From Trueperaceae bacterium (GTDB lineage: Bacteria > Deinococcota > Deinococci > Deinococcales > Trueperaceae), in assembly GCA_965215565.1 (NCBI GenBank), contig CBDCDZ010000004.1, positions 832,001-896,000 on the forward strand: a stretch of 64,000 bases of DNA, in the 5' to 3' direction. The notes under the pieces were generated by a model. That model did not search any database. It was not told the DNA's origin and worked only from the letters and a program-made list of their open reading frames with translations. A program made the translations under genes and the position numbers. Of this stretch, positions 4,478-37,258 are shown piece by piece; the first letter of the stretch is position 1, and every line of letters begins with the position of its first letter.

Positions 4478-4510
4478 TTCATACCGAAGATACTCATGAA
4501 AGTGATAAAC

Positions 4511-4726: not shown

Positions 4727-4759
4727 GTCGCACTAGCGGTGATTTACCGCTAGTGCGAC
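4727..4759. other. Perfect 14-bp hairpin (terminator-like or recombination site)
   Basis: GTCGCACTAGCGGT-GATTT-ACCGCTAGTGCGAC followed by T-rich sequence. Confidence 0.6.
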
Positions 4760-4814
4760 TAAGTTTTGAGTTTCTTGGTAGGCTTGCTTCGTGAGACCAG
4801 CGTATAGAAATTAG

Positions 4815-5813: not shown

Positions 5814-6839
5814 AGACCTGTTCCCCAATAGTCTCATTGAAGCCAGAAGTTCCATAGACCAGCAGCAATGACTAGCACATCATCTTCGAAGTCATCTTTA
5901 CGGTTGCGGTAAGGGGCAACGAGGATTTGATAGCGCTTGAGACCACCTATCGCATGTTCGATAAAGACTCTGAGCTTAGCTAGGGCGCGGTTTTCTCGCT
6001 TTTGTTCAGGGCTCAGTTGGGGGTTAGGGTTCTTCTTACTCTTGCGCGGTTTCTTGTGAGGGATAGAGATATGCTCGCCCTGATAGTCGCTCTGGACACC
6101 CTGGTAACCTAGGTCAAGTAGAACCTCTGTACCGACAAACCACGCTTGCTCAGGCGGGAACTCGCTTTTGAACATGGTCTAGTCGTGCGTTTTACCTGCA
6201 AAGGTCTGACCGACGAAAAGGATAGCTTTGCTCGCTGACGACAACAGCGTGTTCTTCAGAGTGTGGCGCTTTTTTTACCACTATAGTGCTCGCGCTGTTT
6301 CTCATCGTCGCTCGGACGCTGGCACAGACGCTCGGTGACATCAACGAGTAGCTGGTCTATATCGGCTTCTGCTAATGCCGCTTTGAACGCTTCAGCGTTA
6401 GCAAACTCGCGCTCAGGCAACACGCCTAGCTCCGCTAAGGTCTTGTGTAGCAAAGGCGTCAGCTTATGCACGTTCTCACAGGCTTTCGAACGCGCCATAT
6501 AGAACGGGCAAAGCCCGGCCCGTTGGGCCTAGTTCATCAAAGTGCGTCCCCAACACGTCAAACGTCGGGTAGTTCTTGAAGTAGTAAAGCACAAAAAACA
6601 GCTTCGCCTCAGCGCTAGGCAGCTTGCCTTTCTGTCCCCCGCCCGGCCTACGCTGCTTGCGTCCTTGTTCATAAGCCTGTTACCGCTCAGCCTGAGATAT
6701 CTTCGCAAACACTGCTGCCAAAGCAGCAAACTTCTCTTTCGACATCCCTATCAGCGCTTTGAGTTGCCGTTCATCTCTTACCTTCCCTAGCATCGCTTCA
6801 GCTTAGCAGCTTTTTCCTCTATTAGGGAACGGGTCTATT
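5811..6839 (-). mobile_element. Degenerate IS (IS5/ISL2-like, DDE endonuclease type)
   Basis: IRs AATAGACCTGTTCCCCAATAG (5811-5831) and CTATTAGGGAACGGGTCTATT (6819-6839), 19/21 match. Confidence 0.85.
5834..6793 (-). pseudogene. DDE transposase pseudogene
   Basis: Motifs YFKNYPTFDVLG, YSGKK(K)RHTLK, DLGYQG, RVFIEHAIGGLKRY; stops at 6680-6682 and 6179-6181; insertion near 6500-6537; A7 shift site at 6270-6276. Confidence 0.85.
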
Positions 6840-7800
6840 CACTTAACATGTACTTTTCGTGACCTAACACAAGGTGTCCAATCTCATGCGCAAGGGTGAA
6901 GCGGACACGTTCCAGTTGTTGTCTATCAGTTCGAAATATAGTGATACGGGGTGGAGTGAATGATAGCGAGCCGAGAGCATCGCCTCTATGCGAGAGATTT
7001 ATACCAGTCTCTACGATAAGACCTCGCTCTCGCTGCTGCCATTCGCAAATTTGGTATAAATCAACCATTCCATATCGGTAGCTTATTCGATGTAGAGACG
7101 AAGTAGCTAACTCCTCAATTTCCTCTTTCGGTCTGTACTTAACAACTCCTAGACTCTTCCTCTTAGGATTACCTAGCACTGCAATGTTACGAACGCTTAA
7201 ACTAGAATTACCGCCTAAAAATAGTTGCTCAAACATGTCATTGACAGAGTGGCTATAAGTTTCTCGAGCGACACAGCAGATATCAAAATATTTGCTGATA
7301 AAAGCTTCTTCACTAAGTGCTGACTGCAAGCTTAATGAAGTTTGGAGGTAGGAATGCGCAAAAGTTGAAGGTGGTCTAGGGAGAATGTACTTGAAATAGC
7401 GATTGTCAAACTTTCTCAATAAACCAAGACCATTCGATTTTGCATATTTTATGGCACCTTCTTGAAAAGCACTTTTAGAAGCAAATACTCCCTTAACATT
7501 CGCCCCAGAAACTTGCCGCACTTTCTCTCGAAACTCTTCGATATCATCTACAGGAATAGTACCTGAATAGTTCTTACATTCGATAAGCACAACAATAGAG
7601 TAGCTAGGCATACCAGGCAAGGTAATTTCAATAGAAACGTCGAATTTTATTTCCTTATCACGGTCTCTGGAATAATAACCTTTCTGGCGAAATATCTGAC
7701 AGAACTCTTTCCGAGCCCAAAATCTATCTTCCTCAATTTGAATACGAAAAAGCTGGTAGATTTCTTCTTCAAAGCCATCACCTTTTTCGAATGTGTTCAT
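6835..7800 (-). pseudogene. Mrr-like PD-(D/E)xK restriction endonuclease fused to an ImmA/IrrE-type metallopeptidase, truncated by IS
   Basis: KGDGFEE, FDVS, IECKNY, FQEGA; C-terminal RFTLAHEIGH; the stop codon comes from the IS IR; visibly AT-rich. Confidence 0.75.
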
Positions 7801-7854
7801 TACTTAACACTCAATATAGCGCTTAGCACGCCAACGTACAAACTGATAGCTCTT

Positions 7855-9006
7855 CTAAAACTCGCTCAACTCCCGCACGGCAGGCAGCGCCGTGGCCCCC
7901 TCAAACGCATTTACCTCTTCGATAAACCTCTTAAACGAATACGAAGCGTCGTGCGGTCCGGGGCTCGCCTCGGGGTGGTACTGCACGCTGAAAACAGGGT
8001 AGCGAACGTGCGCCATGCCTTCCAAGGTGCCGTCATTCAAGTTGATGTGCGTCGCGCGAAACTGCTGACCGGGGATGGAATCAATGTCCACCGCGTAGTT
8101 ATGGTTTTGCGAGGTGATTTCGACCTCTCCCGTGACAAGGTTTTTGACGGGCGTATTCGCGCCGTGATGCCCGTGCTTGAGTTTGTAGGTCTTGCCGCCT
8201 ACCGCTAAACCTAAGAGTTGGTGTCCCATGCAAATCCCGTAGGTAGGCAGAAGCCCCAGCATCTGCCAGACGGTGTCATGCGCGTATTTAGGGCCGTTCG
8301 GGTCACCGGGACCGTTGGCGATAACGAGGCCATAGGGGTTCAAGGCCATAATCTGCGCGGGCGTGGTTTGCGCGGGCACGACGATGACTTCGGCTCCGGC
8401 TTGCTCGAGCTTGTACACAATCGAGTGCTTGATACCGAAGTCGATGACCGCGACGCGGGGGTTGTCCTTGAAGGTCGGGCGGGCGTACGGAAGAGGTGTG
8501 GTGACCTCTGGGGTCATGTCGCGCCCGTCGATGTCCTCGTGGTCTTTCGCCCGCTGCACCAGTTCAGCGCGGCGCGCCTCGTCCGTCTCGCCATGATAGA
8601 TGATGCCCTTGACGACGCCGCCTTCGCGCAGCCGCCGCGTCAGGGCGCGCGTGTCCACCCCTTCGATGCCCACGATTTTGTGTTCGTCCATAAAGCTCTG
8701 CAAATCCTGATTCGAGCGGTGGTTGCTTGCGACGCGGGAGTATTCGCGGACGATAAACCCTTTTGCAAAGGGACGGTTCGACTCCATGTCGTAGACCGAC
8801 ACACCATAGTTGCCGATGTGCGGGTAGGTCATGGTGACGATCTGCCCGTGGTAACTCGGATCGGTCAGGATTTCCTGGTAGCCCGTCATGGCGGTGTTGA
8901 AGACGATCTCGCCCACCGTCTCGCCGTGATAGCCAAAGGCGTAGCCGGGGTAGAGGGTGCCGTCCTCGAGGGCTAAAAGTGCCGGGGGTTTGTTCAAGAG
9001 GGACAT
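7855..9006 (-). CDS. carA: Carbamoyl-phosphate synthase small subunit
   Basis: [37 protein letters not shown]; start placed at ATG 9006. Confidence 0.97.
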
Positions 9007-17994: not shown

Positions 17995-18840
17995 GTGTTT
18001 GGACGCTTAGGACGAAAAGGGCGCGTGCTCGCCGCATTGTGGTTGGGCGTCGGGCTCTACGCCGCTTTTGTCACTATAGGTGCATATATCAGCGAACACT
18101 CCGACGTTGACGTTCTAGGCTTTTCGGCGGACGAGACTTATCCGAGTGTGGAGGAGATAGTCACCCAGAACCGCACGCAGCTCATGATGGTGAGCGCCGA
18201 GCCACCCGCCAAACCTCTTTTGCCTGACCTCGTCGCCTATCCCCCTAGCGACTTGGGCTTAGTTGGCTCACGCGCGGACGGCACCTTGCGCTTAAAATTC
18301 ACCACGCGCTTTAGCAACCAGGGCGAGGGACCCTTAGAGGTCCGCCCGGAGAGCGAGAACAGCGCCAAACTCTTGCAAGTCGTCTACAGCGCTGACCCCG
18401 ACGCGCCCCTCAGCGAACACGCCGAGGTCGGGCACTACACCTTTGAGCAGCGTCACGGGCACCTTCACATCGACACCTTTGCATACTATGAGGTGTGGTC
18501 AGTGGACGCTCAAGGCGAGCTAGAAGAACCGCTCGTCTCCAACCCCAAAGTGGGTTTTTGCCTCATCGACGCCGAAATCGCTGACCCGGCGATGACCTCT
18601 AAAGAGATGCAGGTCTATTGGGGCTGCCGCAGCGAGGTGCAGGGGCTCTCACCAGGCTGGGGCGACGTGTATACCGCACAGCTCGCCATGCAGGATTTGA
18701 ATGTTAGCGGTCTACCCGACGGACGCTACGCGCTAGTCAACGTCATCAACGCGCAGGAGAACTTAGTCGAGAGCGACTACACGAACAACCGCGCGTGGGT
18801 TTATCTGAGGATTGCGGGTGGGGTGCTTAGGCTCGAGTAA
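17995..18840 (+). CDS. Lysyl oxidase-like protein with an N-terminal membrane anchor
   Basis: PDLV, NQGEGPLE, HGHLH, KVGFCLID, QGLSPGWGDVY, LPDGRY, ESDYTNN. Confidence 0.85.
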   Translation: MFGRLGRKGRVLAALWLGVGLYAAFVTIGAYISEHSDVDVLGFSADETYPSVEEIVTQNRTQLMMVSAEPPAKPLLPDLVAYPPSDLGLVGSRADGTLRLKFTTRFSNQGEGPLEVRPESENSAKLLQVVYSADPDAPLSEHAEVGHYTFEQRHGHLHIDTFAYYEVWSVDAQGELEEPLVSNPKVGFCLIDAEIADPAMTSKEMQVYWGCRSEVQGLSPGWGDVYTAQLAMQDLNVSGLPDGRYALVNVINAQENLVESDYTNNRAWVYLRIAGGVLRLE

Positions 18841-18842
18841 CC

Positions 18843-19865
18843 TCACTTTGCACCACAAGATTCACGAACGATCAGTTCCGCGTTACTGATATGAATGTTT
18901 CGCTCGTCGGGCGCGTCACCACGAACGAGCTGAATCAAGACTTCACCCGCCCGCCGTCCTTGTTCCCTAGGATGGGTACGTACGGTGGTGAGCGGCGGCA
19001 CCGCGTACGCCGCCGTCGGAATATCGTCATAGCCAACAATCGCAATATCTTGAGGGATGCGCAAGCCACGCTCATGAATTGCTGCGATTGCCCCTAACGC
19101 AACTGTGTCATTGCCGGCAAAAAGTGCCGTGAAAGGCGGCGCGTCATTTAGCAGCGACACCATCGCCTCATACCCGCTTTGAGCGCTCAGCCCGCCGTAG
19201 CGCACGAGCGCGTCGTCCACTGGCAAGTCAGCGTCTTTAAGCGTCTGCCGGTAAACATTTAACCTGTCGAGTGACCCGTGATATGAAGTAGGCGCATAGG
19301 TGATATGCGCGACGCGCTCGTGACCTAAACCGATAAGATGACCCACAGCGTCTTTCATACGCGAAGACTGCGTTATCGTGTACGCCCCCGGATGCTCGAC
19401 GTCGTCTACAAAAACCAGTGGAAAGCCTGAGCCGATGAGTTCGCTCTGCACGCTCACATCCTCTAAGCGCGGATTGAGCACGATCAAACCGTCGATTTGT
19501 CTCGCGGCGATAAGTGAGAGGTAGGCGTCCCCACTACTCGCCCGCATCCCTTCAACGATGACGCGAAACCCGCGCTCGTTACAAGTGGCAGTCAACCCGT
19601 AGAGAAGTTGCGGGATAAAAGCGTCCACCTCTAGATGGTGCGGGTCAGGCAAAAGCAGCCCGAGCGTGCGCGTCAGCCCGCTCGCTAAGGTGCGGGCCGC
19701 CGAGTTGGGGACGTAGCCGAGTTCACGGGCCGCTTTAATCACCCGCGCCCGCGTCTCTACGGGAATCGTCTCGACTAAAGGCGCATCGTTTAAGACAAAT
19801 GAAACCGTCGTACGCGACACACCTGCGCGGGCGGCGACTTGTTGACTGGTGATGCGTTTTTTCAT
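18843..19865 (-). CDS. LacI-family transcriptional regulator
   Basis: VAARAGVSRTTVSFVLN HTH; GYDD, PPLTTV. Confidence 0.95.
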   Translation of the reverse strand: MKKRITSQQVAARAGVSRTTVSFVLNDAPLVETIPVETRARVIKAARELGYVPNSAARTLASGLTRTLGLLLPDPHHLEVDAFIPQLLYGLTATCNERGFRVIVEGMRASSGDAYLSLIAARQIDGLIVLNPRLEDVSVQSELIGSGFPLVFVDDVEHPGAYTITQSSRMKDAVGHLIGLGHERVAHITYAPTSYHGSLDRLNVYRQTLKDADLPVDDALVRYGGLSAQSGYEAMVSLLNDAPPFTALFAGNDTVALGAIAAIHERGLRIPQDIAIVGYDDIPTAAYAVPPLTTVRTHPREQGRRAGEVLIQLVRGDAPDERNIHISNAELIVRESCGAK

Positions 19866-19908
19866 AAAGTGAGCCGAAAGTAATCAGTCATGAGGTAGGA
19901 AAGTCGAA

Positions 19909-19975
19909 AGCAATGAGCAACGAGCAATGAGTGAAAATCTTTAGGCTCATTGCTCGTTGCTCGTAACTCATTGCT
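19909..19975. repeat. Inverted heptamer (AGCAAYG) hairpin repeat
   Basis: AGCAATGAGCAACGAGCAATGAG-TGAAAATCTTTAGG-CTCATTGCTCGTTGCTC. Confidence 0.75.
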
Positions 19976-19979
19976 GCTC

Positions 19980-21344
19980 TTATGCTAACACACCCTCCTT
20001 CTCCCGCAGTCCCTCCGGTATATAGTCCCCGTGCGCTTCAATGAGGTCGTCCACCAGGTTCCAAATCTCGTCCAAACTTAGTTCGGCGGAGGTGTGCGGG
20101 TCGAGCATGGCCGCGTGGTAGATGTGCTCGCGGTTGTTCTTCAAAACCGCTTCGACACTCAAGGCTTGCACGTTGATGTTAGTCTGCATCAGCGCGGCCA
20201 AGTGCGGTGGGAGTGCGCCGATTTTGGTCGGTTGGACGCCGTTTTTATCTACAACGCAGGGGACTTCGACGACGCAGCCAGTCGGCAAATTGTCGATGAG
20301 ATTATCGTTTTGCACGTTGCCGTAGACGACGCTGGGAGTGCCGGTTTCGAGCGAATGAATGATCGTCGAGCCGTACTCATGAGAGCGCTCGACTTTAAGC
20401 TCTGAATTCGGGTTCTCGAGCTTTTCTTTCATCTCGTGCCAGCCCTCAATCTGCCGCTCACAGCGCGTGAGGTACTCGTCTAAAGGAATGTCATATTCCT
20501 CCAACAAATCCTCGCGCCCCTCCTTGATGAACCAGGGCGTGTACTCGCTGAAGTGCTCGCTAGACTCCGTGACGAAGTAGCCTAAACGCCTGAACATCTC
20601 GTAGCGCACCGCGTCGCTGAGTCCCCTCGTCCCTCCGTCCGTCCGGTCAGCGTGACCGCGCATCGGAACCTTGCCGCTCTGAGCAACCTCACGAATTTTC
20701 GGGTAGAGGTCTTCGCCGTTACGTTCAAACTTGAGGTAAAACGCCACGTGGTTGATGCCCGCGCAGAGGTAGTTGATCTCGTCTATCGGCACGCCGATGT
20801 CACTTGCAAGCTGCTCCGCCGTTCCTTGCACGCTGTGGCAGAGACCAATGGTGTTGATGCTCGAGGCGCGGTTCATCGCGAGGCAGTTCATGACCATCGG
20901 GTTGACGTAGTTGAGGTGCGTCACCTCGGGGCAGAGTTGTTCCATCTCTTGGGTCATCTCGAGAAACACCGGGATCGTGCGCACCGCCCGCATGATGCCG
21001 CCGATGCCCAATGTGTCCCCAATGGTTTGCCGCAGCCCGTACTTTTTGGGGATGTCGAAGTCAGTCACAGTCGCAGGTTTATAGCCGCCCACCTGAAACA
21101 TGCTGATGGCGTAGTCGGCGCTGTCTAAGGCGCGCTGGCGGTCTAATGTCGTCTCTATCGTCGGCTTGACGCCCAAAATATCCGCGATCTTGTGCGCGAC
21201 GACTTCAGACGTTTTAAGCCTCTCTTCGTTGATGTCGAACAAAGTCAGCGTAGACTCGGCAAGTTCGGGGTAGGACAAGATATCGCCGATGAGGTTCTTG
21301 GCGAAGACAGTACTGCCTGCGCCGATTAGAGTAATTTTAGGCAT
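19980..21344 (-). CDS. melA: GH4 alpha-galactosidase/alpha-glucosidase
   Basis: IGAGSTVF, QTIGDTLGIGG, NYVNPM, GLCHSVQ, TESSEHFSEY. Confidence 0.92.
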   Translation of the reverse strand: MPKITLIGAGSTVFAKNLIGDILSYPELAESTLTLFDINEERLKTSEVVAHKIADILGVKPTIETTLDRQRALDSADYAISMFQVGGYKPATVTDFDIPKKYGLRQTIGDTLGIGGIMRAVRTIPVFLEMTQEMEQLCPEVTHLNYVNPMVMNCLAMNRASSINTIGLCHSVQGTAEQLASDIGVPIDEINYLCAGINHVAFYLKFERNGEDLYPKIREVAQSGKVPMRGHADRTDGGTRGLSDAVRYEMFRRLGYFVTESSEHFSEYTPWFIKEGREDLLEEYDIPLDEYLTRCERQIEGWHEMKEKLENPNSELKVERSHEYGSTIIHSLETGTPSVVYGNVQNDNLIDNLPTGCVVEVPCVVDKNGVQPTKIGALPPHLAALMQTNINVQALSVEAVLKNNREHIYHAAMLDPHTSAELSLDEIWNLVDDLIEAHGDYIPEGLREKEGVLA

Positions 21345-21369
21345 GGTCTCTCCTTTGCAAATAAATGGC

Positions 21370-21381
21370 TAACACGTGTTA
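21370..21381. promoter_or_regulatory. Candidate LacI-family operator
   Basis: Perfect palindrome TAACACGTGTTA upstream of melA; 10/12 copy TAAAGCGTGTTA at 27233-27244. Confidence 0.55.
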
Positions 21382-21394
21382 CGTATTGCACTCG

Positions 21395-22183
21395 TCACTT
21401 AATCATGTGAGCAGTAGGGGGCGGCGTTTCCGAACGACGTTGTGCTAAGAGCGTTGACAGTTGGGTGTTTGCCGCCAAGAGGAGCAGCGCAAATTCGCCC
21501 ACGTTCCACCAGAAGTGAACCGCGACTCTAGGTGCAGTTGTCAACCCCGCGATGCGCCCGCAGAACGAACTATAGGCGAGCCAACCGTTTTTCCCCAAAA
21601 TACCGGGGAGCCCCTGTGCCGAGTCGAACAGCGGCAGACCGAGTGCTCTTAGCTCTACAACGACTTGGATATAGCGAACGAGCAGATAGGTGTGCTCCAG
21701 GCTATGCGCCGTCGCCCAGACCATCAGCGCCCAGCCCCACACGCCGCGCATCCCACGCACGAACAGAAATAAGCAGCAGCCCCACACGAGCCAGTTCCAA
21801 GTGAAGTGAATCCACTCGGCGTTCGCCGCGACGATCAACCCGAGCGAGCGAGCCGAGGTCCAATCCAAGAGGTAGTACTGGACGACTTGGGCGGCGTGCT
21901 CGAGCATGTGAAAGCTCTGCAAAAGGAGGAGTACGCTCAGCACTACCGCCGTGAGACCGAACGCCCTGGCGTCATCGCGCCACTTGAGCACGGCGGGCAC
22001 GGCGACGATGCCTAGCGCGATAAGCGTGGCGTTGGAAAGAGATACGTTCCAGCCGTTGACCAATACGCCCCACACTATCGTCGCCGCCGCGCCGCTTAGT
22101 ACGCTCAGCATAAACCAGCGTCCAGGGTCGAGTAGCGTGAGGAGAGGAATGGACGGACGAGACCGCCCGACTTGCACGCTCAT
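21395..22183 (-). CDS. His-rich integral membrane protein of unknown function
   Basis: Several TM segments; repeated HxxEH...HFxWN motifs. Confidence 0.8.
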   Translation of the reverse strand: MSVQVGRSRPSIPLLTLLDPGRWFMLSVLSGAAATIVWGVLVNGWNVSLSNATLIALGIVAVPAVLKWRDDARAFGLTAVVLSVLLLLQSFHMLEHAAQVVQYYLLDWTSARSLGLIVAANAEWIHFTWNWLVWGCCLFLFVRGMRGVWGWALMVWATAHSLEHTYLLVRYIQVVVELRALGLPLFDSAQGLPGILGKNGWLAYSSFCGRIAGLTTAPRVAVHFWWNVGEFALLLLAANTQLSTLLAQRRSETPPPTAHMIK

Positions 22184-23802
22184 CTCGTGACCTCTTGTCT
22201 TGTGACGGTTAAGAGCGTATGTGCAGAGAGGTCAGATAGTGTCGAGACTGCGCCGTCGGACCAGAGGATGTCTAGGTGGAAAGTGAGGCGTCTTCAGGAA
22301 TACCGAAGTGAACCCTAGGAGCGTCCCCGCTCAGATAACCGCTGCCGCTTTTGATCTCTCGAGTCAATCGTCCCTTCGCTCGTGTGGAGTTTGAGCGTTG
22401 CGCCTAGGGCTCTCGTATTGCCGTCCGACTGAAAGAGGTCAAGCTCGAGCCCCTGCCCGCCACACAGTTGATTCTCAAAGAGAACAGCCGGAGACTCTAA
22501 GTTATTGATGATAATATCTAAGTCTCCGTCGTTATCGACATCCGCCATCGTCATCCCGCGTCCCCCTTCCCGCGCGTTTAGGTTCCATTCGGGCATCGGT
22601 TCGAAACCTTGCTCAGCGTTCTTGAAGACCTGATTCTCTTCGACGAGTTCGTCGTTCGGTAAGTGCGCAAAGACCTCTTTCGCCCGCATTCCGTTGACCA
22701 CGTAGAGGTCTAAACGCCCGTCGTTGTCGAGGTCGCCGAACTTGCCTGACCAACTCCAGCCCGTCGCGTCGAGTTTGTAGGGATAGGCGAGGTTTTCGAA
22801 GCCGCCTTCCGTGCGGCTATAGAGTATGTTTTCTTCGGTTTGAACTTTTTTGCTAACGTTGCGCTGGTAGCTCTTTTCCATCAAGGGCATCCAGGCGGCT
22901 AAGGCTTCGGGGTCGCTAAAGTCGGGCTTCATGTCGGTAGCGAACAGCTCGAGCCGCCCATCATTATCCACGTCGCCCGTGTCGAAGCTCATCGTATTGC
23001 GCGTGGTGGTTTCGAAGGGTGACACCTCTTGCCAGCCTTCTGGCGTATTCAGATAGGCATAGTCCGGTACTTCGAAGTCGTTGCCTACCAAGAGGTCGCG
23101 TTTGCCGTCGTCGTTGAGGTCGAAGAGCGTCATAGCGAGCGCTTGAGAACGTTCGGCGAGCCTCGTCTCCAAAAACCCCTCGGACGTTTGTTCGTAGACA
23201 AAGACGCCCGCCCCGCTCGAGAACAAAAAGCTATCTCTCAGGTCTTTTTCCAAGAGCGAGTCGTACGACGCCGTCACGAGGTCCAAGTCGCCGTCTGCGT
23301 CCAAGTCATCCCAAAGCATCGTGTACGCCTTTTGCGTGACGCCTTTTAGAACGCTCCGTTCGAGCCTACCCCGAACGTTTTTCCAATAGCTGAGCGACCC
23401 CAAACTCTGTGTGAAGACGAGGTCGAGCCACCCATCGCCGTCCACATCCACGAGGGTGACGGCTCTCGAGTCGCCGTGCGTCAGCGCCTCCTTGCGAAAC
23501 GACAAACCGCCCTCGTTCCAGAAAATCGTGTTGTTGCCGTCTAAGTTAGCGAGGACAAGCTCTAAGTCGCCGTCATTGTCCAGGTCGCCCACCGCGACGC
23601 CTGCGCCGTTAGAGTCGTAGTAGGTGACCTCTTCGCCGTGAGCACGAGTGGTGTGATCTAAGGGATGCTTGACGAAGGTGTTGGCGCATGAACTTGCGTT
23701 TAACGGCGTCACCTCAACACCGACAGGCGTGGTTTGCGCGTAGGCAAGCGTCATTAGAGCGAGTCCTACAAAGAGTGAGAAAAATAGCGTGCGCGCCATC
23801 AT
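22180..23802 (-). CDS. Secreted FG-GAP/CRTAC1-like (ASPIC-UnbV) beta-propeller; C-terminal domain disrupted by two compensating indels
   Basis: Repeated GDLDNDGDL; shifted-frame SGSGYLSG...VHFG and LWSDG segments; the final segment is back in the original frame and ends in an ATGA overlap with the next gene. Confidence 0.85.
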
Positions 23803-23851
23803 AAGAAGAGATGGGGCGTGCTGAGAGCACGCCCTGTCAACGTGTCATCTA

Positions 23852-25153
23852 CTAGAAGAGACCGTTGATCTCTTCGTTGGCTGCGGGTAGCGCCGTCTCC
23901 GGCTCGACCTGACCGAGCAAGATGCTCTGCATGGTGCGCGTCATGATTTCGTCCACCTGCGCAGCGTAGTCGGTGACAGGAAAGAGGAACGTCGCCCCTT
24001 CGATTTCGGTGAGGTCAGAAAAGGCAGTTACGTCCACGCCCCTCTCCTCGAAGGCTGCCACTGCAGTATCGACGGCTGACTCCACCGCCGGAAAGACCAC
24101 CGCGTATGAAGCGACGACATCTTGACACTCGGGCGAAGCTAAGAACTTGACCCACGCCCAAGCCGCCTCTTGGTTATCCGTACCCGCCCAGATGGAGTCT
24201 GCGAGCCCGTTGAACATGCTCTTCTTACCTTCGGGACCAGCAGGAACATAGGCGAAGCCGACCGGAAACTCGGCGCTGTTGATGTTCGTGCCGATGTTCC
24301 AGCTTCCGTCGGTGAGCGTGGCTCCTCTACCTGCGGCAAAGAGCGCATTTTTACCGAGCGCGTTGACCTCTTCAAAGGTGGGCGCAAAACCCCGCTCGAC
24401 GAGGCTCTGATACCACGCGATGGTGGCGATAAAGCGCGGGTCGCTGTAGTTGTATTCCTCGGCGTAGAGGTCGTCGATGAAGTTCCAACCCGTCGAGGCG
24501 GCGAAGGACGCCCACTGCGTCTGCCCGTTGAAGTTCGCGCCGTCGGAGGCTAAGTAGCCGTACTGCTCGACGTTTCTGGGGTCGAAGTCGGGCGAGAGAC
24601 CGTTGTTGCCGTTCGCGTCGATAGAGAGCCGCGCGATGATGTCGGTAAAGGTGCCTCCGTCTTCGGGGTTCCAGGTGGCGTTGTTGAGTTCTTCCGCCGT
24701 GACGCCCGCCGCTTCCAACATCTGCTCGTTGTAGACCACCGCGATGGTGTCCCAATCTTTAGGAAGCCCGTAGCGCTCGCCGTCCCTGGTCCAGAGTTCG
24801 GCTAAATCGCCGACGTAGATGTCGGTGGGAACACCGTCCGCCTCGACGAGCGGCTGAATATCCACGAGTTGACCGTTCGCCGCGAGTTCCGGGTAGCGGG
24901 CTAGGTGGTTGGTGAAAACGTCGGGCGCAGTCCCCGAGACCATGCCCGTGGTGATGCCGCCCCAGTAGTCACCCCAGCCCTGCTGCGTAATCTGGACCTG
25001 AATGTCGGGATTTTGCTCCATGAAGATATTCGCGCATTCCTGATACGCGGGCTGTTGGTTGGCGTCCCAGAGCCAATAGTCGATCTGTTGGGCGAAGGCT
25101 GCGCCTGTAGCGAACGTGGCGGTGAGCGTAGCGGCAGTTAAAAACTTCTTCAT
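23852..25153 (-). CDS. Sugar ABC transporter substrate-binding protein
   Basis: Signal peptide; APDVFT, YGLPKDWDT. Confidence 0.92.
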   Translation of the reverse strand: MKKFLTAATLTATFATGAAFAQQIDYWLWDANQQPAYQECANIFMEQNPDIQVQITQQGWGDYWGGITTGMVSGTAPDVFTNHLARYPELAANGQLVDIQPLVEADGVPTDIYVGDLAELWTRDGERYGLPKDWDTIAVVYNEQMLEAAGVTAEELNNATWNPEDGGTFTDIIARLSIDANGNNGLSPDFDPRNVEQYGYLASDGANFNGQTQWASFAASTGWNFIDDLYAEEYNYSDPRFIATIAWYQSLVERGFAPTFEEVNALGKNALFAAGRGATLTDGSWNIGTNINSAEFPVGFAYVPAGPEGKKSMFNGLADSIWAGTDNQEAAWAWVKFLASPECQDVVASYAVVFPAVESAVDTAVAAFEERGVDVTAFSDLTEIEGATFLFPVTDYAAQVDEIMTRTMQSILLGQVEPETALPAANEEINGLF

Positions 25154-25268
25154 CTCTTCCTCCTTAGAATTGCAAACTCTCCGCAGAGAGGGATTGCTTG
25201 ATTAAGAGCTTTTAGCAATTGCAATTAGCTGCTAGGTATTGGCTAAGAACTAAGAGCCAACAGCTTCC

Positions 25269-26192
25269 CTACTTGAGTCCACTAAACTGCAACGAATTCA
25301 CCACTTGCCGCCCCAACACGATGAGCAGGATGAACACGGGGATGATGCTTAAAAACGTACCCGCCATGAGCCCCGTCCAGTCGGGCGCACCTTGCGGCGT
25401 CTGGGTGCGAAAAAACTGCAAGGCGACGGTAAGGACGCGCACGCTGTCGTCCTTGCCAACCAAGAAGGGCCAGAAGAACTCGTTCCACATCTGGATGCTC
25501 GTCAGGATAACGAGCGTGATAATAGGCGTGCGGCTCATCGGCAAGATGATGCGCCAGAAGATACCGAAGGGTGACGCGCCGTCTAAGCGAGCCGCCTCCT
25601 CGAAGGCGGCGGGAATCCCTAAAAAGAACTGCCTGAGGAAAAAGACCGCGAAGGGCGACATCAGGAAAAAGGGCGCAACCATGCCCGCGTAGGTGTCGAG
25701 CCAGCCCAGGTTGCGAATCAGGATGAAGTTGGGAATAAAGAGGACGATGGCGGGCACCATCAGCGCGGAGAGGTACAGCAAGAAAATCGTGTTGCGTCCC
25801 GGAAACTTGAGCCGCGCAAAGGCGTACGCCGCCATCGCACTGAAAAAGGTCTGCCCGAGCACGATAAGCGTTGTAAACACCACCGAGTTCCCCATGGCCC
25901 GCAAGAAATTGATGTTGCCGCTGCTGCCCCCCGCTGCCACGCTCTCCTCCGCGCTGACGAAGCCCAGGACGCGGCGAAAGTTAAACAGGGTTGGGTCATT
26001 GGGGAACAGCTCGCCGACGCTGCCGAAAAGGGCGCGTTGCGGCGTCAAGGCAGTTTTGAAGACGATGAAAATCGGAAAGAGGGTGAGCGCAATGAGGAAG
26101 ATGAGGAGCGCCCAGGTGAGAATGCGTCCAACGCTCCACTTACGGTCACTGACGGTTTTTGAAGTGGCTGTTTTTGAAGTCGCTGTTGCCAT
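25269..26192 (-). CDS. Carbohydrate ABC permease
   Basis: EEAARLDGA motif. Confidence 0.93.
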   Translation of the reverse strand: MATATSKTATSKTVSDRKWSVGRILTWALLIFLIALTLFPIFIVFKTALTPQRALFGSVGELFPNDPTLFNFRRVLGFVSAEESVAAGGSSGNINFLRAMGNSVVFTTLIVLGQTFFSAMAAYAFARLKFPGRNTIFLLYLSALMVPAIVLFIPNFILIRNLGWLDTYAGMVAPFFLMSPFAVFFLRQFFLGIPAAFEEAARLDGASPFGIFWRIILPMSRTPIITLVILTSIQMWNEFFWPFLVGKDDSVRVLTVALQFFRTQTPQGAPDWTGLMAGTFLSIIPVFILLIVLGRQVVNSLQFSGLK

Positions 26193-26216
26193 CTCTATCT
26201 CCTTACGCTCGAGTCA

Positions 26217-27146
26217 TTAAGCAAGGTCCGACGAGTCGCCGCGCAAGAAGCGCATCTGAAGAAGCGTCACCGCGATGAGCAGCAGGAATAACACTACGGA
26301 CATCGCCGTGGCGTAGCCCATCCTGAAGAACTCGAAGGCGTTTTGATAGATGTAGTAGACCAGGACGCGTGTCGCGTCCACTGGACCCCCTTGTGTCGTG
26401 ACGGCGACGGTGTCGAAAATCTGGAACGAGCCGACTAAGGCTGTGACCAGCACAAAGACCATGATGGGGCGCAGCAGCGGCAGCGTGATGTTGCGAAACA
26501 TGCGCCATTCGCCCGCACCGTCGATGGTGGCGGCTTCGTAGAGCGACTTGGGGATGCTCTGGATACCCGCGTAGAAAAGTAGCGCGTTAAAACCCATGTG
26601 CCGCCAGATATTGATACCGGCAATCGTCGGAAGCGCCTGCTCCACCGAGCCGAAGAAGGGCTGACGCCCGATGCCGATGTTGGTCAGGAGCGCGTTGCCC
26701 CAACCCAAAAGCGGGTCTAACATCCAGAGCCAGATGAGCGCGACGATGACGTTGGAGAGAAGATAGGGGAGCACAAACACGCCGCGCACGAAGATAGATT
26801 TGGCGACGCGGTCCATCACCACGGCGATAAAGAGACCTAGCGCGGTCTGTAAGGGGATGTTGTAGAGCACGTAGAGCCAAGTCACGCCCATCGCGTTCCA
26901 GAAGTCGCCGTCGCTGAAGAGTTCGCGGTAGTTCTCGAAGCCTACCGCTTCGGGGGGGCGCAAGAGGTTCCACTCGGTGAAGCTGATTTGCACCGCTCTG
27001 ACGGAGGGGATCGCGAAAAAGACCGCGAACCCAATGAGACTTGGCAAAATAAAGAGGTACGCCGTGAGCGCTTCTTGACTAGTGAACTTACTTATGAACG
27101 AAGGCTCATCTCGTTTGGCGGACGTGGGGGCGGCCCTGGTACTCAC
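26217..27146 (-). CDS. Carbohydrate ABC permease
   Basis: EAATIDGA motif; start uncertain (GTG 27146 has an RBS; frame open to 27203). Confidence 0.92.
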   Translation of the reverse strand: MSTRAAPTSAKRDEPSFISKFTSQEALTAYLFILPSLIGFAVFFAIPSVRAVQISFTEWNLLRPPEAVGFENYRELFSDGDFWNAMGVTWLYVLYNIPLQTALGLFIAVVMDRVAKSIFVRGVFVLPYLLSNVIVALIWLWMLDPLLGWGNALLTNIGIGRQPFFGSVEQALPTIAGINIWRHMGFNALLFYAGIQSIPKSLYEAATIDGAGEWRMFRNITLPLLRPIMVFVLVTALVGSFQIFDTVAVTTQGGPVDATRVLVYYIYQNAFEFFRMGYATAMSVVLFLLLIAVTLLQMRFLRGDSSDLA

Positions 27147-27425
27147 ACCATTCCTCTCCTTCCGAATAGGCAGCACCTCTCTCATGAAAGACGCCCTATT
27201 CACTCTTCCGAACGGGTAACTTACACTGTTAGTAAAGCGTGTTAGTTAGTTTATAAGCCTTCCGCATTTTGTCAAGTGTAGCGTCTTCATACTAGGGAAA
27301 TAGGGTTATAACCGCGATACTGCGCCCTTCAAATGCTATAAAGGGCGTACTTTTAACTGTTTCTAAGGAGTATTGATGCACGTTACAGCGTTAGGAACCA
27401 CCTCATCCACCGAAAGCCTCGCCCT

Positions 27426-28982: not shown

Positions 28983-29348
28983 CTACAGCATGTCCGCCCG
29001 TCTACTCTGCGTCACGGTAGGCGGCTCTTCCTCCTCGACCCGGTTGCGCAACAACTCGATAAGGAACACCTGCGCAACGCCGAAACTCAGCGCGCTGATG
29101 AACCAGTTGATCCAGCGGAGCGGGTTATCCACGTTCTGCCGCAAATTGATAGTGATGACTGCCGGACGAAAACCCCACCGCGTGATGAAGTAGACTGCGC
29201 CAAAGGCAAACACGACGCTGAAGATGCTCATGACTAAGCGCGAGCTGAGCCAAGCGTCGGGGACCCACCGCTTGCCGAAGCGGTTGACGAGAAAAAAGGT
29301 GACGAAGGATATGACTAGAAAGATAAGTGTGGTGGTAAGAACATTCAC
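28983..29348 (-). CDS. Small membrane protein (about 3 TM)
   Basis: RBS AAGGAGG; hydrophobic segments. Confidence 0.75.
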   Translation of the reverse strand: MNVLTTTLIFLVISFVTFFLVNRFGKRWVPDAWLSSRLVMSIFSVVFAFGAVYFITRWGFRPAVITINLRQNVDNPLRWINWFISALSFGVAQVFLIELLRNRVEEEEPPTVTQSRRADML

Positions 29349-29509
29349 GCTTAGCGCCTCCTTAATGCGGCTAGTTTCGTACCGTTGACGTATTTGTGAA
29401 CTTTTCGTTGCCTTCTTAGGCTGATTATAGACTGTGAACTCTGCTTTTCTACTGATAGATTCGACCTTGTGCCTCCCTTACGCCGCACAAGGTGCTCTGC
29501 AGGCGTGGT

Positions 29510-32308
29510 TCACGAGTCGCCCCTACTCGGCTGCAAGGTTTCGGAGGTTTCCGCGTCCGGCGCGGGACGTCCGAGCCACCACACGCTGAGGCGCATGATA
29601 ATGAGCACGCCCAGCCCGAGCAGCGACGCCTTGAACCAGGCGAAGCTGTCGATAGGCGCGGAGCCGAAGACGGCGTTCATGGCGGGTAGGTAGATAAACG
29701 AGAGTTGCAGCGCGGCGAGCGCGCCGACGCTCAAGATAACCCAAGGGTTGCGGCGGCCTTGAAGGCGCGGCGCGCGGATCGCGAAGAGGTAGGCGAGCTG
29801 CGCCAGGACGATGCCTGTGACGGTGAGCGTCTGCACCCTCGCGAGCGTGCGTTCTGGCGAGACGCTGTCCGCTAAGGCGTCAGCCAGACCTAGATAGCTC
29901 AGCGCGAGCGTCCCGAGGGTCAGTAAGACGCTCATCAGCGCGATGAGGATGAGGTTGGCGCGGCTCAGCAGGGTGTTTTGGCGCGAACCGAGGGGAGTGG
30001 GGATGGACTCGAGCGCCAGCGGTAAGCCCAGCAAGAGGTTCGCCACGAGGTGAACCCACAGCGCTTGCGTCGGCAAAAGGGGTAGGAGCGTGCCGTCCCC
30101 TTGCAAGAGGGCGTACCCGGTGCTCACGGCTAGAATCGCTAAAAGCGCGATATTGACGGGCAGCGCAAACGTCAGGAGCCGCGTGACCGCCGTACGCACT
30201 TTGCCCCCTTCTTGCAAGGCGGTCAGGAGCCCGCCGATGTTGTCGTCCGCCAGCACCACGTCCGCTACCTCTTTCGCCACGGACGTGCCCGACACGCCCA
30301 TCGAGACGCCCACGTCGGCTTGTTTCAAAGCGGGCGCGTCGTTGACGCCGTCGCCCGGCACCGCGACGACGTGCCCGTCCGCCTGGAGCGCCTTGACAAG
30401 CTGCACCTTCTGCTCGGGCGTCACGCGGGCGAAGACGCTGTGCTCGCGTACGGCTTGCGCGAACCTCTTGTCCGAGAGCGCCGCGAGTTCTTCGCCCGTG
30501 ATGACCTCTTCGCCCTCGCGTAAAAGCCCTAAATCTTGCCCGGTGAGCCGCGCGGTGGCGGCGTGGTCGCCCGTGATCATCTTGACAGTGAGGCCCGCCG
30601 TTCGGCAGACGTGCAGCGTCGAGCGCGCTTCGGTGCGGACCGGATCGACGACGCCGACGAGACCTAAGAAGGTGAAGCCGTCTTCGACGTCGCTGGTGAG
30701 GAGTCTGGGAGAAGGCTCGGGCAAGCGGCGCTCCGCTAATGCGATCACGCGCAGCCCCCGCGCCGCCCACGCTTCAGCCTCGCGGCGGACGCGCCTGAGG
30801 TCTAAATCGTGACCGTCACTCTGGATCACGCAGCGCGTCAGCACCTCGTCCGGGTCGCCGCGCAAGGAGATGAGCCCGTACCCCGCGGGCGTGCTGTGCG
30901 AGCTGGCGGTGAAACCGCGCCACGTCTTAAAGGGCAGCGTGTCGAGGCGCGGGTAGTTCTCGCGGAGGCTCTGGGCGTTGAGCCCAAGCTTGTAACCCGC
31001 CACGACGAGCGCCCCTTCGACGGGGTCGCCTGTAATGAACCAGCCGAGCCTATCGCGCTGGAGCGTGGCGTCACTCGAGATGACCCCCACCGTGAGCAAA
31101 TCCTCTCCGTTCGAGGAGAGCAGCCGGACCTGTTCGTCGTCGAAGCTGAGCAGTTGTCCTTCGGGCGCGTAGCCTTGACCGCTCAGGTGGAAGGGCAAGG
31201 GCGGCGTCCAGAGCGACGTCGCAGTCATCTCGTTATGGGTGAGCGCCCCGGTCTTGTTCGCTAGAATCGCCGTGACGCCGCCCAGGGTCTCCGTCGCCGC
31301 GAGGTGGCGCAGCGCGACGCGGTGCGCGATCAAGCGCCAAATCCCGGCGGCGAGCGCGATGGTCACGAGGATGGGCAGACCGACAGGCGCAGCGCCTACT
31401 GCGATCGCGGAGACAGTGAGCTTGATCTCCGCGAAGGAGAAGTCGCGCCAGACGCCGCCCAAAGCGACGAGCGTGGAGAGCACCGCGATGGCTACTGTGA
31501 GCGCCCAGCCGATGCGGACAAAGGTCCCCGAGAAGGGGGGCGCGTCGTGCTTGATGCGCTGGATCAGCCCCGCTAGGTGCCCTAGCTCCGTCGTCATGCC
31601 CGTCGCCACGACGACGCCCGCCGCCCCGCCGCTGCTTACGTACGTGCCGCTGTGGAGCATACTGTGGCGGTCGCCCACGCCGACCTCTTCGGGCGTGGGG
31701 TCAGCGTGCTTATCGACGGGCAGCGATTCGCCTGTCAGGGCGGACTGCTTGACGCGCAGATTGTAAGAGCTTAAAAGACGCAAGTCGGCGGGCACCCAAG
31801 CGTCCGCCTCCAAGGTTACGATGTCGCCCGGTACGAGGTCTTCTGCTGGGACGGAGAGCTTCTGCCCGCCGCGCAAGACCGCCGCCTCATCCGGCACGAT
31901 CTTGATGAGCGCGTCGAAGGAACGGTTCGCCCGGTACGCCTGGACGAAACCGATGGCGAGGTTGATGCTCACTGCGATAAGGAGCACCACGCCGTCTAAG
32001 ACGAGCCCCAGCCAAAAGGCTAAGATGCTCGCGGCTAAGAGAACGTAGGTGAGCGGATTTCGGAACTGGCGGCGCAAAAGGTGCCCGAAGGTCTCCCCTT
32101 CAATGCGCGTCAAGGTGTTCGTGCCCTCCGCGGTAAGCCGCTTTTTCGCCTCCTCGCTGCTCAGCCCTGCCTCGCTGCTGCCGAGTAGCGCCAACGCTTG
32201 TCGCGCTGAGAGCGCGTGCCAAGGATACTGGGTTTGCTTATTCTGGGTTTGAGCACCTACTTGTTTATTTTGAGCTTGCCCGTCTCGAGCTTGCGCGTCG
32301 TCAGACAT
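29510..32308 (-). CDS. P2A-like P-type ATPase homologue with degenerate catalytic and ion-binding motifs
   Basis: TGES, MITGDH and GDGVNDAPALK are retained; NKTGA replaces DKTGT and PVGL replaces PEGL. Confidence 0.9.
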   Translation of the reverse strand: MSDDAQARDGQAQNKQVGAQTQNKQTQYPWHALSARQALALLGSSEAGLSSEEAKKRLTAEGTNTLTRIEGETFGHLLRRQFRNPLTYVLLAASILAFWLGLVLDGVVLLIAVSINLAIGFVQAYRANRSFDALIKIVPDEAAVLRGGQKLSVPAEDLVPGDIVTLEADAWVPADLRLLSSYNLRVKQSALTGESLPVDKHADPTPEEVGVGDRHSMLHSGTYVSSGGAAGVVVATGMTTELGHLAGLIQRIKHDAPPFSGTFVRIGWALTVAIAVLSTLVALGGVWRDFSFAEIKLTVSAIAVGAAPVGLPILVTIALAAGIWRLIAHRVALRHLAATETLGGVTAILANKTGALTHNEMTATSLWTPPLPFHLSGQGYAPEGQLLSFDDEQVRLLSSNGEDLLTVGVISSDATLQRDRLGWFITGDPVEGALVVAGYKLGLNAQSLRENYPRLDTLPFKTWRGFTASSHSTPAGYGLISLRGDPDEVLTRCVIQSDGHDLDLRRVRREAEAWAARGLRVIALAERRLPEPSPRLLTSDVEDGFTFLGLVGVVDPVRTEARSTLHVCRTAGLTVKMITGDHAATARLTGQDLGLLREGEEVITGEELAALSDKRFAQAVREHSVFARVTPEQKVQLVKALQADGHVVAVPGDGVNDAPALKQADVGVSMGVSGTSVAKEVADVVLADDNIGGLLTALQEGGKVRTAVTRLLTFALPVNIALLAILAVSTGYALLQGDGTLLPLLPTQALWVHLVANLLLGLPLALESIPTPLGSRQNTLLSRANLILIALMSVLLTLGTLALSYLGLADALADSVSPERTLARVQTLTVTGIVLAQLAYLFAIRAPRLQGRRNPWVILSVGALAALQLSFIYLPAMNAVFGSAPIDSFAWFKASLLGLGVLIIMRLSVWWLGRPAPDAETSETLQPSRGDS

Positions 32309-32375
32309 ACCGCTCCTTTCTCCGCCCTACCACCTTCGTTTGAAGCGCCCTTAGAGGCCGCCCTCGCGTCTCGGC

Positions 32376-32906
32376 TCACTCATGACCGCCGCTATGGTGG
32401 CTCAGGTAGATCGCGCCGCCCATCGTCAAGATGCCCAGTCCGAGCAGGAGCAAATCGAGGGTGGAGTCGTACTCTAAGCCTAGCGCCTGCTGCAAAAACT
32501 TCACGACTAAAATCAAGATGATGACCCGGGCCAAACGTCCTTTAAGCCCTTCAAACGAGTTCGTATCCAGTATACGACTTGCCACCTCGGTACCCTCGGC
32601 GATTCTGACGTTGCCGATAAACTGCCGGTAGAGCCCCGCCGTAAAGATGAAGAGCGCCGAAGCGATGAGGTAGCCGTCGATGACGCTCACCACGCTGCTG
32701 ATCATCTGAGCGCGGAGGTCGGTGCGCCCCGCTAAGTCGAGCGTCGGGTCCGTATAGTCTGTCACGCTCACAAGGAGGAAAAAGGCGTCCACCGTGGTGA
32801 TAAAGAGCATGAACAGCCACATCGCGAAGCTCGCGATCACTGCGACTAGGATGAGAACGCGGCTTTGCCAGAGCGCCGCTTCGAATACGTAACCGATCGC
32901 TTTCAT
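32376..32906 (-). CDS. YqhA/UPF0114-like membrane protein
   Basis: LWQSR, IDGYL...GLY..FI, LKGRLARVI pattern. Confidence 0.75.
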   Translation of the reverse strand: MKAIGYVFEAALWQSRVLILVAVIASFAMWLFMLFITTVDAFFLLVSVTDYTDPTLDLAGRTDLRAQMISSVVSVIDGYLIASALFIFTAGLYRQFIGNVRIAEGTEVASRILDTNSFEGLKGRLARVIILILVVKFLQQALGLEYDSTLDLLLLGLGILTMGGAIYLSHHSGGHE

Positions 32907-36514: not shown

Positions 36515-37258
36515 ATGCCTGAAATCGACGTTCGCTTTTTAGGCGGCTTGAGCGAGGTTCAGCAGCGCGCCTTTGTGAGCGCGGCGGCGCGCTGGCGAGA
36601 GGTCTTGCCCGCGCCGCTGCCCGCTATCGCCGTTGACGGAGAAGTCACCGACGGCATCATTATCGAGGCTGAAGGCGTCAATATCGACGGGCGCGGCAGC
36701 GTGTTGGGGGCGGCTGGTCCTACGCACTTGCGCCCGAATTCGCTGCTGCCCGCTAAGGGCATCATGCGCTTCGACATCGCCGACGTCAGCCAGTTAGAAG
36801 CGGACGGAACCTTTGGAAGCGTGATTCTGCACGAGATGGGGCACGTCATCGGCATCGGGACGCTCTGGGAGCAGCTCGGCTTGTTGCGCGGGGCGGGGAC
36901 AGACAACCCAACCTTTACAGGTGCAGCGGCGAGGGAAGTCTACCGCGAGCTGCTAGAGGAGGCGTCACCTCTGAACGTCCCCGTCGCCAACACGGGCGGA
37001 CCCGGCACCCGCGAAGGGCACTGGCGCGAGGCGGTCTTCGGCAACGAACTCATGACCGGCTTCTTGTCGGGGCAGCGTCAACCGCTGAGCCGCCTTACCA
37101 CCGCGTCGCTGCGCGACTTAGGGTATGAGGTGGACGAGCGCGCGGCGGACCCTTACGAATTGGGCGAGGAAACAGGCGCTATCCAAGCCCTGCCCCTCTG
37201 CAAGCGCGACATCGTGAGACCTGTGCCCGTCGTCCTGCCGGAGAGCGCACTGGAGTAG
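36515..37258 (+). CDS. Leishmanolysin-related zinc metallopeptidase
   Basis: HEMGHVIGIG, GHWRE, ELMTG, LRDLGY. Confidence 0.85.
   Translation: MPEIDVRFLGGLSEVQQRAFVSAAARWREVLPAPLPAIAVDGEVTDGIIIEAEGVNIDGRGSVLGAAGPTHLRPNSLLPAKGIMRFDIADVSQLEADGTFGSVILHEMGHVIGIGTLWEQLGLLRGAGTDNPTFTGAAAREVYRELLEEASPLNVPVANTGGPGTREGHWREAVFGNELMTGFLSGQRQPLSRLTTASLRDLGYEVDERAADPYELGEETGAIQALPLCKRDIVRPVPVVLPESALE

Follow-up and report, generated by a model that had tools for sequence, protein, structure and literature searches.

An asparagine-for-aspartate P2A-type ATPase conserved in a genus of Trueperaceae, possibly acting as a nucleotide-responsive membrane protein

P-type ATPases are defined by the aspartate that becomes phosphorylated, and the eukaryotic family members argued to have roles other than pumping (TMEM94, the P4-cyclase fusions and PH1) are either disputed or heavily degenerate. 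What can an otherwise intact gene of this family do when that aspartate is gone? The question is raised by a locus in a 64,000-nucleotide stretch of a Trueperaceae bacterium (assembly GCA_965215565.1, contig CBDCDZ010000004.1, positions 832,001 to 896,000; hereafter the window, in whose coordinates positions are given). A first-pass annotation of this DNA had pointed to a P-type ATPase lacking the catalytic aspartate and most ion ligands, and had proposed a repurposed, non-pumping protein. Below, G000 denotes the source genome, G001 and G002 the other two genomes of the genus, P0001 the window protein, and P0136 a deep relative.

The protein, its relatives and its selection

Translation gave the uninterrupted open reading frame (ORF) first annotated at 29510–32308 on the minus strand, the strand of all features placed below for this gene and its two neighbours. 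It encodes a pseudo-P2A ATPase of 932 residues with ten membrane helices and actuator (A), nucleotide-binding (N) and phosphorylation (P) domains, and contains no internal stop. Five P-type Pfam families score above cut-off, and the A, N, P and membrane domains are all present by Pfam, by the structure model and by structure matching. The motifs read in the first pass (NKTGALT, PVGL, RGDP, PVNIAL, LWVHLVAN, TGES, TGD and GDGVND) are all there. Asn351 (codon AAC, 31256–31258) takes the place of the phospho-acceptor Asp, and Val309 (codon GTC, 31382–31384) that of the cation-binding Glu in the fourth membrane helix (M4); P0136 has Asn and Leu, respectively, at these positions.

An AlphaFold2 model made from a 149-row alignment predicts the full P2A fold, with a predicted local distance difference test score (pLDDT) of 91.5 and a predicted template modelling score (pTM) of 0.89, and it matches SERCA and SPCA1 structures of the E2 type with TM scores of 0.83–0.86. 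The model is closer to E2-type than to E1 structures, a likeness that is not used in our argument because the alignment consists mostly of active pumps and no control was folded. The best solved relatives by sequence are SPCA1 and LMCA1 (E about 1e-111). The protein falls below every NCBIfam P2 equivalog cut-off, coming closest for TIGR01522 (449 bits against 798) and reaching 372 bits against 703 for TIGR01116; the test discriminates poorly, since the motif-intact control P0005 is also under both cut-offs (686 and 588 bits). Assignment as a P4 lipid flippase was rejected, with a TIGR01652 score of 55 bits against 431 and only the hydrophobic M4 residue resembling PISL, whose Ile we take to occupy the SERCA Glu309 position.

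Orthologues are found in both other genomes of the genus, which belong to two other species, with identities of 92% (G001) and 78% (G002). No other match above 41% identity was present among 128 genomes of the family, and across 364 genomes of the phylum only the three genus copies exceed 44%. A search of 5.8 billion proteins, in which only the 8000 best candidates were scored, returned three clade clusters at 79–92% identity, followed by a drop to 45%. These clusters comprise 13 sequences, and both NKTG and PVGL occur in 12/12 that cover the two sites (P0128, a C-terminal piece, does not reach residues 351 and 309), which answers the earlier call to examine whether the Asp-to-Asn and Glu-to-Val changes are conserved among orthologues. 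A profile search of 1.84 billion representatives added a single deep member, P0136, which is 51% identical, is known from one 4.9-kb contig, carries the motifs NKTGSLT, PLSLP, LRGS and WVHL, and groups with the genus proteins in trees with full support and a long stem. With P0136 included, Asn351 is present in 13/13 clade sequences covering the site. Because a relative at this distance shares D351N, K483R and N753H and is likewise hydrophobic at position 309, it appears that Asn itself is held at position 351, beyond the mere loss of Asp.

Among the 150 cluster representatives listed, 149 have Asp at the catalytic site, and the exception is the clade member P0136. Asp and Glu occupy the 351 and 309 positions in 110/110 nearest full-length homologues outside the clade, and DKTG is found in 48/48 other P-type ORFs from family and order loci, three loci without a long ORF having been dropped before alignment. 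No clade members were detected in metagenome scans at the Joint Genome Institute (0/61 in the first and one locus at 36% identity in the second) or among viral contigs (0/31). The comparison across genomes confirmed that the substitutions at 351 and 309 are real and not sequencing errors, a concern raised in the first pass: NKTG and PVGL recur in G001, G002 and metagenome proteins, and the two codons are AAT and GTT in G001. Of four runs, three (two samples) have contigs covering 30/30 bins; one contig spans codons 351 and 309 with 3 differing letters, whose places are not resolved, and so does not serve as confirmation of the codons.

The ratio of nonsynonymous to synonymous rates (dN/dS), estimated by Nei-Gojobori with 95% bootstrap intervals, is 0.087 (0.064–0.11) against G001, from 291 silent and 98 replacement differences, and 0.20 (0.165–0.246) against G002, from 359 silent and 296 replacement differences. 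This range of 0.09–0.20, the estimate that the first pass had called for, is far from neutral. The frames remain open over more than 930 codons in three species at synonymous divergences (dS) of 0.57–0.87. For comparison, 21 neighbouring control genes, chosen by eye with shadow ORFs and cassette genes excluded, have a median dN/dS of 0.089 (G001) and 0.091 (G002; maximum 0.168). A selected set of 35 codons, of pocket and substituted residues, shows 10 (G001) and 12 (G002) silent changes and 0 amino-acid changes, and residues 331–362 around Asn351 show zero replacements relative to G001 at a dS of 0.6. The substituted codons themselves have changed silently (Asn AAC/AAT, with AAC again in G002; Val GTC/GTT; Arg CGC/AGG; Pro CCG/CCA), and dN/dS in M5–M6 is 0.02 (G001) and 0.10 (G002). 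These sequence comparisons support a conserved protein under purifying selection, and the earlier judgement that the gene is not a product of random decay was borne out by this selection, by the silent changes at substituted codons and by the conserved orthologues. A lost catalytic residue, a fold predicted to be intact and purifying selection together mark the protein as a putative pseudoenzyme.

How unusual this is was examined by a GTDB scan of all species representatives with the pattern ETLG-x7-(codon not starting with G)-KTG-x-LT, which misses changes of Asp to Glu, Gly, Ala or Val as well as genes without ETLG, P0136 included. The 24 loci found comprise 6 without an open frame containing the motif, 3 that are not P-type, 2 of this clade, and 13 other P-type genes or fragments. 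Three of these 13 were followed, and their relatives keep Asp (2/2, 19/19 and 9/9). Among the lineages checked, the pseudo-pump clade is the only one whose sequences have the Asp change fixed across species. In the literature we found neither a natural dead bacterial P-type pump nor a description of this lineage, in a search that covered subscription papers thinly and excluded supplements.

In the 13 scattered loci (L074–L078, L081, L089–L093, L095 and L096), each from a single GTDB genome, the catalytic Asp is replaced by Asn, Ser, Tyr or His; the three checked are strain-level changes or errors, and L077 additionally reads GAGVDD and PEALS. Another degenerate lineage of P2A type was noticed in L158, L159, L163 and L164 (L096, from a metagenome-assembled genome of Desulfoscipio geothermicus, and its relatives; 4/20 loci aligned). 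In this lineage, TGES is replaced by TYAS, TSAS, TGAN or TGAD and GDGVND by GEGVTD, GEGVND or GEEVDD, and the catalytic Asp is mostly kept.

Residues lost and kept, and a possible nucleotide switch

To separate lineage-specific changes from older ones, we compared 10 clade proteins with the 110 nearest full-length homologues (117 matches, of which 7 under 850 residues were dropped). All 110 have Asp351, Glu309 and the M6 Asn, all 110 lack the M6 Thr and the M6 Asp, and 93/110 lack the M5 Glu. The first-pass proposal of a coordinated loss of ligands therefore holds in part: the M4 Glu (now Val or Leu) and the M6 Asn (now His) were lost with the catalytic Asp, whereas the M5 and M6 acids were gone before the pump died, being already absent from most (M5) or all (M6) of the motif-intact nearest pumps. 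This comparison leaves D351N, E309V/L and the M6 change of Asn to His as losses particular to the lineage. Changes fixed in 10/10 clade members aligned include D351N, K483R, N753H and E188Q, with Val or Leu at 309. His753 in M6 (30050–30052), present in 10/10 members, stands where 110/110 nearest pumps have Asn. Newly fixed residues include Lys296 at the outer end of M4 (31421–31423; 10/10 members and less than 5% of the nearest pumps) and W463 and G465 in the N-domain loop past Phe460. Of the P2A ligands in M5 and M6 (Asn768, Glu771, Asn796, Thr799 and Asp800; list and ion-site numbers from the SERCA positions given in PMC6879984), only the M5 Asn is kept, and not in P0136, and Asn796 is His.

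The head domains show a different picture. The TGES dephosphorylation motif (31724–31735) and the GDGVND Mg/phosphate-binding motif (30338–30355) are kept in 10/10 members, as are TGD and the P-domain Lys; the Thr preceding GDG is Pro in the genus and Thr in P0136. RGDP replaces the N-domain KGAP as first annotated, a conservative change from Lys to Arg (Arg483, 30860–30862; 10/10 members, codons CGC or AGG), and the adjacent Phe460, Gly484 and Arg520 are kept. The charged catalytic residues E194, R520, D581, R628, K634, D653 and D657 are kept down to 51% identity. Of the nucleotide/Mg/phosphate pocket sites that do not vary among the nearest pumps, 27/32 are kept in 10/10 members, compared with 132/255 other invariant sites (Fisher p 5e-4; 20/25 vs 96/202 without Gly and Pro), and invariant sites are kept at 120/182 positions in the cytosolic head compared with 39/106 in the membrane (p 2.5e-6). 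Between P0001 and P0136, M3–M4 and M5–M6 are 35% and 42% identical, compared with 58–66% for the head domains, and neither the M5 Asn nor the second M6 Asn is kept in P0136. Read from the alignments, the pattern is one of intact nucleotide/Mg site residues on a rebuilt membrane domain.

Judged by its sequence, the protein descends from a cation pump of the bacterial P2A type. Its clade nests in a group with a Shimodaira-Hasegawa-like approximate likelihood ratio (SH-aLRT) support of 99, together with pumps of many phyla and apart from the family's own P2A copies, which suggests that a pump lacking Asp800 was acquired and then converted. Vertical descent from the P2A pumps native to the family was disfavoured by the approximately unbiased (AU) test at p 0.021, a weak result in which the group was named after the tree had been seen, branches are long and no mixture model was used.

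The protein is very probably unable to pump canonically or to form the canonical aspartyl-phosphate. Because the pocket is conserved and the cation site is gone, we favor a two-state nucleotide switch, that is, a membrane protein that would bind Mg-ATP without being phosphorylated and change its conformation with the nucleotide; we put this tentative reading at a probability of roughly 45%. The pump has lost its phospho-acceptor Asp and two cation ligands and kept its nucleotide-pocket residues. On binding nucleotide, the N and A domains would shift between open and closed arrangements together with the M1–M4 helices attached to them, and this state would report the ATP level to a membrane partner, for which the UPF0114/YqhA-family protein encoded directly upstream is the leading candidate by gene order alone. 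The new M6 histidine may tune the ATP response. We found no paper reporting a raised ATP affinity of Asp-to-Asn pumps, and our argument does not rely on one. Engineered pumps with the same change offer a guide: KdpB D307N is reported to be catalytically inactive, open without nucleotide and in a single E1·ATP state with the ATP analogue AMPPCP (PMC9651954), MgtA D373N to have no significant ATPase activity and normal localisation (PMC4758953), and engineered Asp-to-Asn pumps to remain unphosphorylated (PMC13322241).

Several observations weigh against the nucleotide switch. We picked the 32 pocket sites ourselves by their roles in SERCA, and SERCA equivalents other than the ion-site positions are likewise those we take to correspond. 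Five of these sites are altered in some or all members (T355, T430, K483, L522 and T651). The retention of the pocket may partly reflect fold constraint, the pocket being the most deeply conserved part of the haloacid dehalogenase (HAD) fold, and it is not evident why a protein that only binds nucleotide should retain the TGES glutamate, as this one does. The dN/dS against G002 exceeds that of 21/21 control genes, so that constraint is relaxed on the G002 branch, whereas the value against G001 is typical. In three of the metagenome records (P0123, P0127/P0128 and P0129) the C-terminus is shifted or split, as a result of either assembly errors or real breaks. The link to UPF0114 rests on three genomes of one genus, and among 36 UPF0114 loci examined, a P-type gene lies within about 1.5 kb only at the three cassette loci.

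The retained TGES, K634, D653, N656 and D657 (the last, the second Asp of GDGVND, being presumably the equivalent of Na,K-ATPase Asp714) would also be accounted for by a membrane-bound phosphohydrolase that cleaves a small phosphate ester or anhydride by direct attack of water, without a phosphoenzyme. In line with this idea, Na,K-ATPase Asp369Ala is reported to keep wild-type p-nitrophenyl phosphatase activity dependent on Asp714 (PMC2268108, a meeting abstract). We consider a hydrolase unlikely: the phosphatase activity was seen with an artificial substrate and is described in the abstract only, MgtA D373N is reported without significant ATPase activity (PMC4758953), and the ten membrane helices with their newly fixed K296 and H753 are left unexplained. 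These helices, remodelled and not randomly so (dN/dS of 0.02/0.10 in M5–M6, H753 and K296 fixed in 10/10), are the starting point for another explanation, a passive and possibly nucleotide-gated carrier of protons or lipid head groups in which the hydrophobic M4 and the M6 His form a new site. PVGL or PLSL in M4 resembles PISL, which forms a hydrophobic gate in P4 lipid flippases (PMC11225554), and in human TMEM94 the M4 sequence PILPLL is accompanied by a lipid-shaped density (PMC12134183). The chance of a carrier nevertheless seems small, as M3–M4 and M5–M6 are less alike between P0001 and P0136 (35% and 42%) than the head domains (58–66%), P0136 lacks the M5 Asn and the second M6 Asn, and alternating access without phosphorylation has no support in this analysis.

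A static scaffold or assembly factor of a membrane complex, in which the pocket persists only for fold stability, has parallels in the reported transport-independent scaffold roles of P4 ATPases, in plant PH1, which is reported to boost PH5 without pumping itself (PMC10654040), and in the P4 module of P4-guanylate cyclases, which loses DKTGT in several lineages (PMC13466520). Against such a role, E194, R520, D581, R628, K634, D653 and D657 are kept to 51% identity, whereas TMEM94 has lost TGES and GDGVND, and the degenerate lineage of L158, L159, L163 and L164 has changed exactly these motifs. With no P2 or P3 partner pump found in the three genomes either, we doubt that the protein is a scaffold. 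The near-complete set of residues for phosphorylation and dephosphorylation, together with a residue 351 that is always Asn, could mean that the protein is still a pump, with Asn351 converted to Asp by deamidation or in the RNA and the changed membrane site carrying an unusual substrate. Asn mutants of related hydrolases are reactivated by deamidation, but we found no precedent among P-type ATPases, in which Asp-to-Asn mutants made in the laboratory routinely lack activity. UACG, the motif of bacterial mRNA editing, is missing from the codon context GCG AAC (AAT in G001), and long-term retention of Asn would be pointless if Asp were needed; such a rescue is thus very improbable. Finally, a decaying gene or sequencing artefact might be read from the three metagenome records with broken C-termini, the raised dN/dS on one branch and the single-genome Asp-to-Asn/Ser cases elsewhere. 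It is scarcely credible and, unless the orthologues were misassemblies of one sequence, refuted by the selection data: all three species maintain an open frame of more than 930 codons, dN/dS stays well under 1, the substituted codons have themselves changed silently, and a relative at 51% identity shows the same changes.

Gene neighbourhood and other features of the window

The UPF0114/YqhA-family gene (PF03350; 176 residues, 32376–32906) is co-directional with the ATPase gene and directly upstream of it in 3/3 genomes, at 67 (G000), 68 (G001) and 10 bases (G002). A Shine-Dalgarno-like AAAGGAG (32313–32319), read from the sequence, precedes the ATPase ATG at 32308, and in G002 the UPF0114 stop codon runs into the ATPase ribosome site. 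The genes beyond UPF0114 differ in each of the three genomes. The UPF0114 gene has a dN/dS of 0.17 (G001) and 0.065 (G002) and is, from its position, a probable operon partner. The family occurs in only 7/128 genomes of the bacterial family; a UPF0114 homologue on a Rubrobacter plasmid has no pump beside it, and for the closest homologue outside the genus (50%, G020) the contig stops about 120 bases after the gene. Complex prediction with ATPase residues 83–912 scored 0.00 against a mark of 0.32 and gave no verdict. E. coli YqhA, a protein without an assigned function, is predicted to assemble as a ring of 14 subunits (10.1101/2023.06.09.544317). It is doubtful, though conceivable, that one Asp-to-Asn change made an ion pump into an ATP-sensing receptor that gates or controls this probably co-transcribed and putatively ring-forming protein; if true, it would be the P-type counterpart of a dead transporter regulating a channel, and a first handle on UPF0114 function. 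Two further UPF0114 paralogues lie elsewhere in G000 (C4:1178718-1179251 and C4:514921-515481).

On the other side, 161 bases downstream of the ATPase gene, a membrane protein of 121 residues (28983–29348) belongs to no known family, with no Pfam or NCBIfam match and Atlas matches all below 0.9. Within the genus, synteny extends to this gene and to the convergent galK as well. The 121-residue family forms 13 clusters at 64–97% identity, with homologues in 8 other genomes of the bacterial family and in four of its other genera, duplicated in G009; at 7 loci checked, none is beside a P-type gene. Because its homologues elsewhere have no pump neighbour and the gaps are 103–177 bases, it was set aside as a part of the ATPase unit and is probably a separate unit. 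A sigma-70-like site on the minus strand between the two genes (29424–29451) is weak, one being found where 0.8 is expected by chance.

For a further option named in the first pass, a regulatory subunit, the gene content offers no partner pump of the same class. PF00122 genes number two in G000, two in G001 and one, the pseudo-pump alone, in G002, and G001 and G002 are 96–97% complete (G002 97%). The second gene in G000 encodes a CopA-like P1B pump with DKTGT and CPC, which is also the only other type in G001. No P2 or P3 pump was found by PF00122 in the three genomes, and a PH1-type helper was rejected accordingly. G002 has no heavy-metal P1B pump by PF00122 despite its 97% completeness.

Elsewhere in the window, a Tn7-like remnant (113–4477) contains a TniB/AAA gene that continues into an IS4/5-type transposase, together with a TniQ/TnsD gene split in two. 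The region 4000–8000 is low in guanine and cytosine (fraction 0.47–0.50) and includes a Mrr-type endonuclease with an IrrE-like peptidase domain (6835–7800). A galactoside-use cluster (18843–27203; LacI, GH4, an ATP-binding cassette transporter and an FG-GAP protein) has a dS to G001 of 0.17–0.39, below the 0.55–0.92 of flanking genes, which suggests recent exchange of the cluster. Its FG-GAP protein (22315–23802) has 495 residues compared with 539 in G001 and aligns over 479 only, and the gene is possibly frameshifted near its end. A lysyl-oxidase-like protein (17995–18840) and a leishmanolysin-like (M8) protein (36515–37258) are also encoded.

Comparison with known P-type systems

The P2A Ca2+/Mn2+ pumps SPCA1 (8iwp, 8iwu), LMCA1 (6zhf, 6zhh) and SERCA1a have the same domains and the same TGES, TGD and GDGVND motifs as the pseudo-pump, which differs in lacking the phospho-acceptor Asp, the M4 Glu, the M5 Glu and the M6 Asp and in having His for the M6 Asn. 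Nearest to the clade, at 40–46% identity, are CtpF-like bacterial P2A pumps (such as P0005–P0121) that share its Asp-less M6, the label being approximate, as CtpF was compared by description and lies outside the alignment. These pumps, named in Rubrivirga, Rubrobacter, Sorangium and Gemmatimonadota, are uncharacterised, with their activity inferred from motifs, and 110/110 keep DKTGT, PEGL and the M6 Asn, unlike the pseudo-pump. In mycobacterial CtpF, for which Ca2+ export is reported, Asp800 is replaced by Ala, while Glu771 and Thr799 are present (PMC6879984).

The substitution itself is known from the engineered mutants KdpB D307N, MgtA D373N, SERCA D351N and Na,K-ATPase D369N, which are inactive and E1-type, with KdpB closing on an ATP analogue. 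In contrast, the change in the pseudo-pump is natural, fixed and under selection, and is accompanied by a rebuilt membrane site. The narrow range, one genus and one deep sequence, limits its general importance. The lineage is nonetheless a clean natural experiment, in which the substitution that biochemists use to kill pumps is combined with nearly all other catalytic residues. It is also the only P-type gene found in G002. A single protein could therefore test the P-type head as a nucleotide sensor or as a phosphoenzyme-free hydrolase.

Among eukaryotic proteins, animal TMEM94/ERMA shares the P-type architecture, non-canonical motifs and a hydrophobic M4 kink with the pseudo-pump. It is reported to bind AMPPCP and to have no ATPase activity (PMC12134183), whereas another study reports Asp-dependent Mg2+ uptake, so that its activity is disputed (PMC13322241). 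Human TMEM94 keeps the Asp and lacks TGES and GDGVND; the pseudo-pump is the reverse. The P4 module of alveolate guanylate cyclases and plant PH1, a P3B helper of PH5, are also P-type proteins whose pump activity is lost or unused. These eukaryotic proteins are either fused to a cyclase or paired with a pump, whereas the bacterial pseudo-pump stands with neither a fused output domain in its own frame nor a partner pump of its own class in its genomes.

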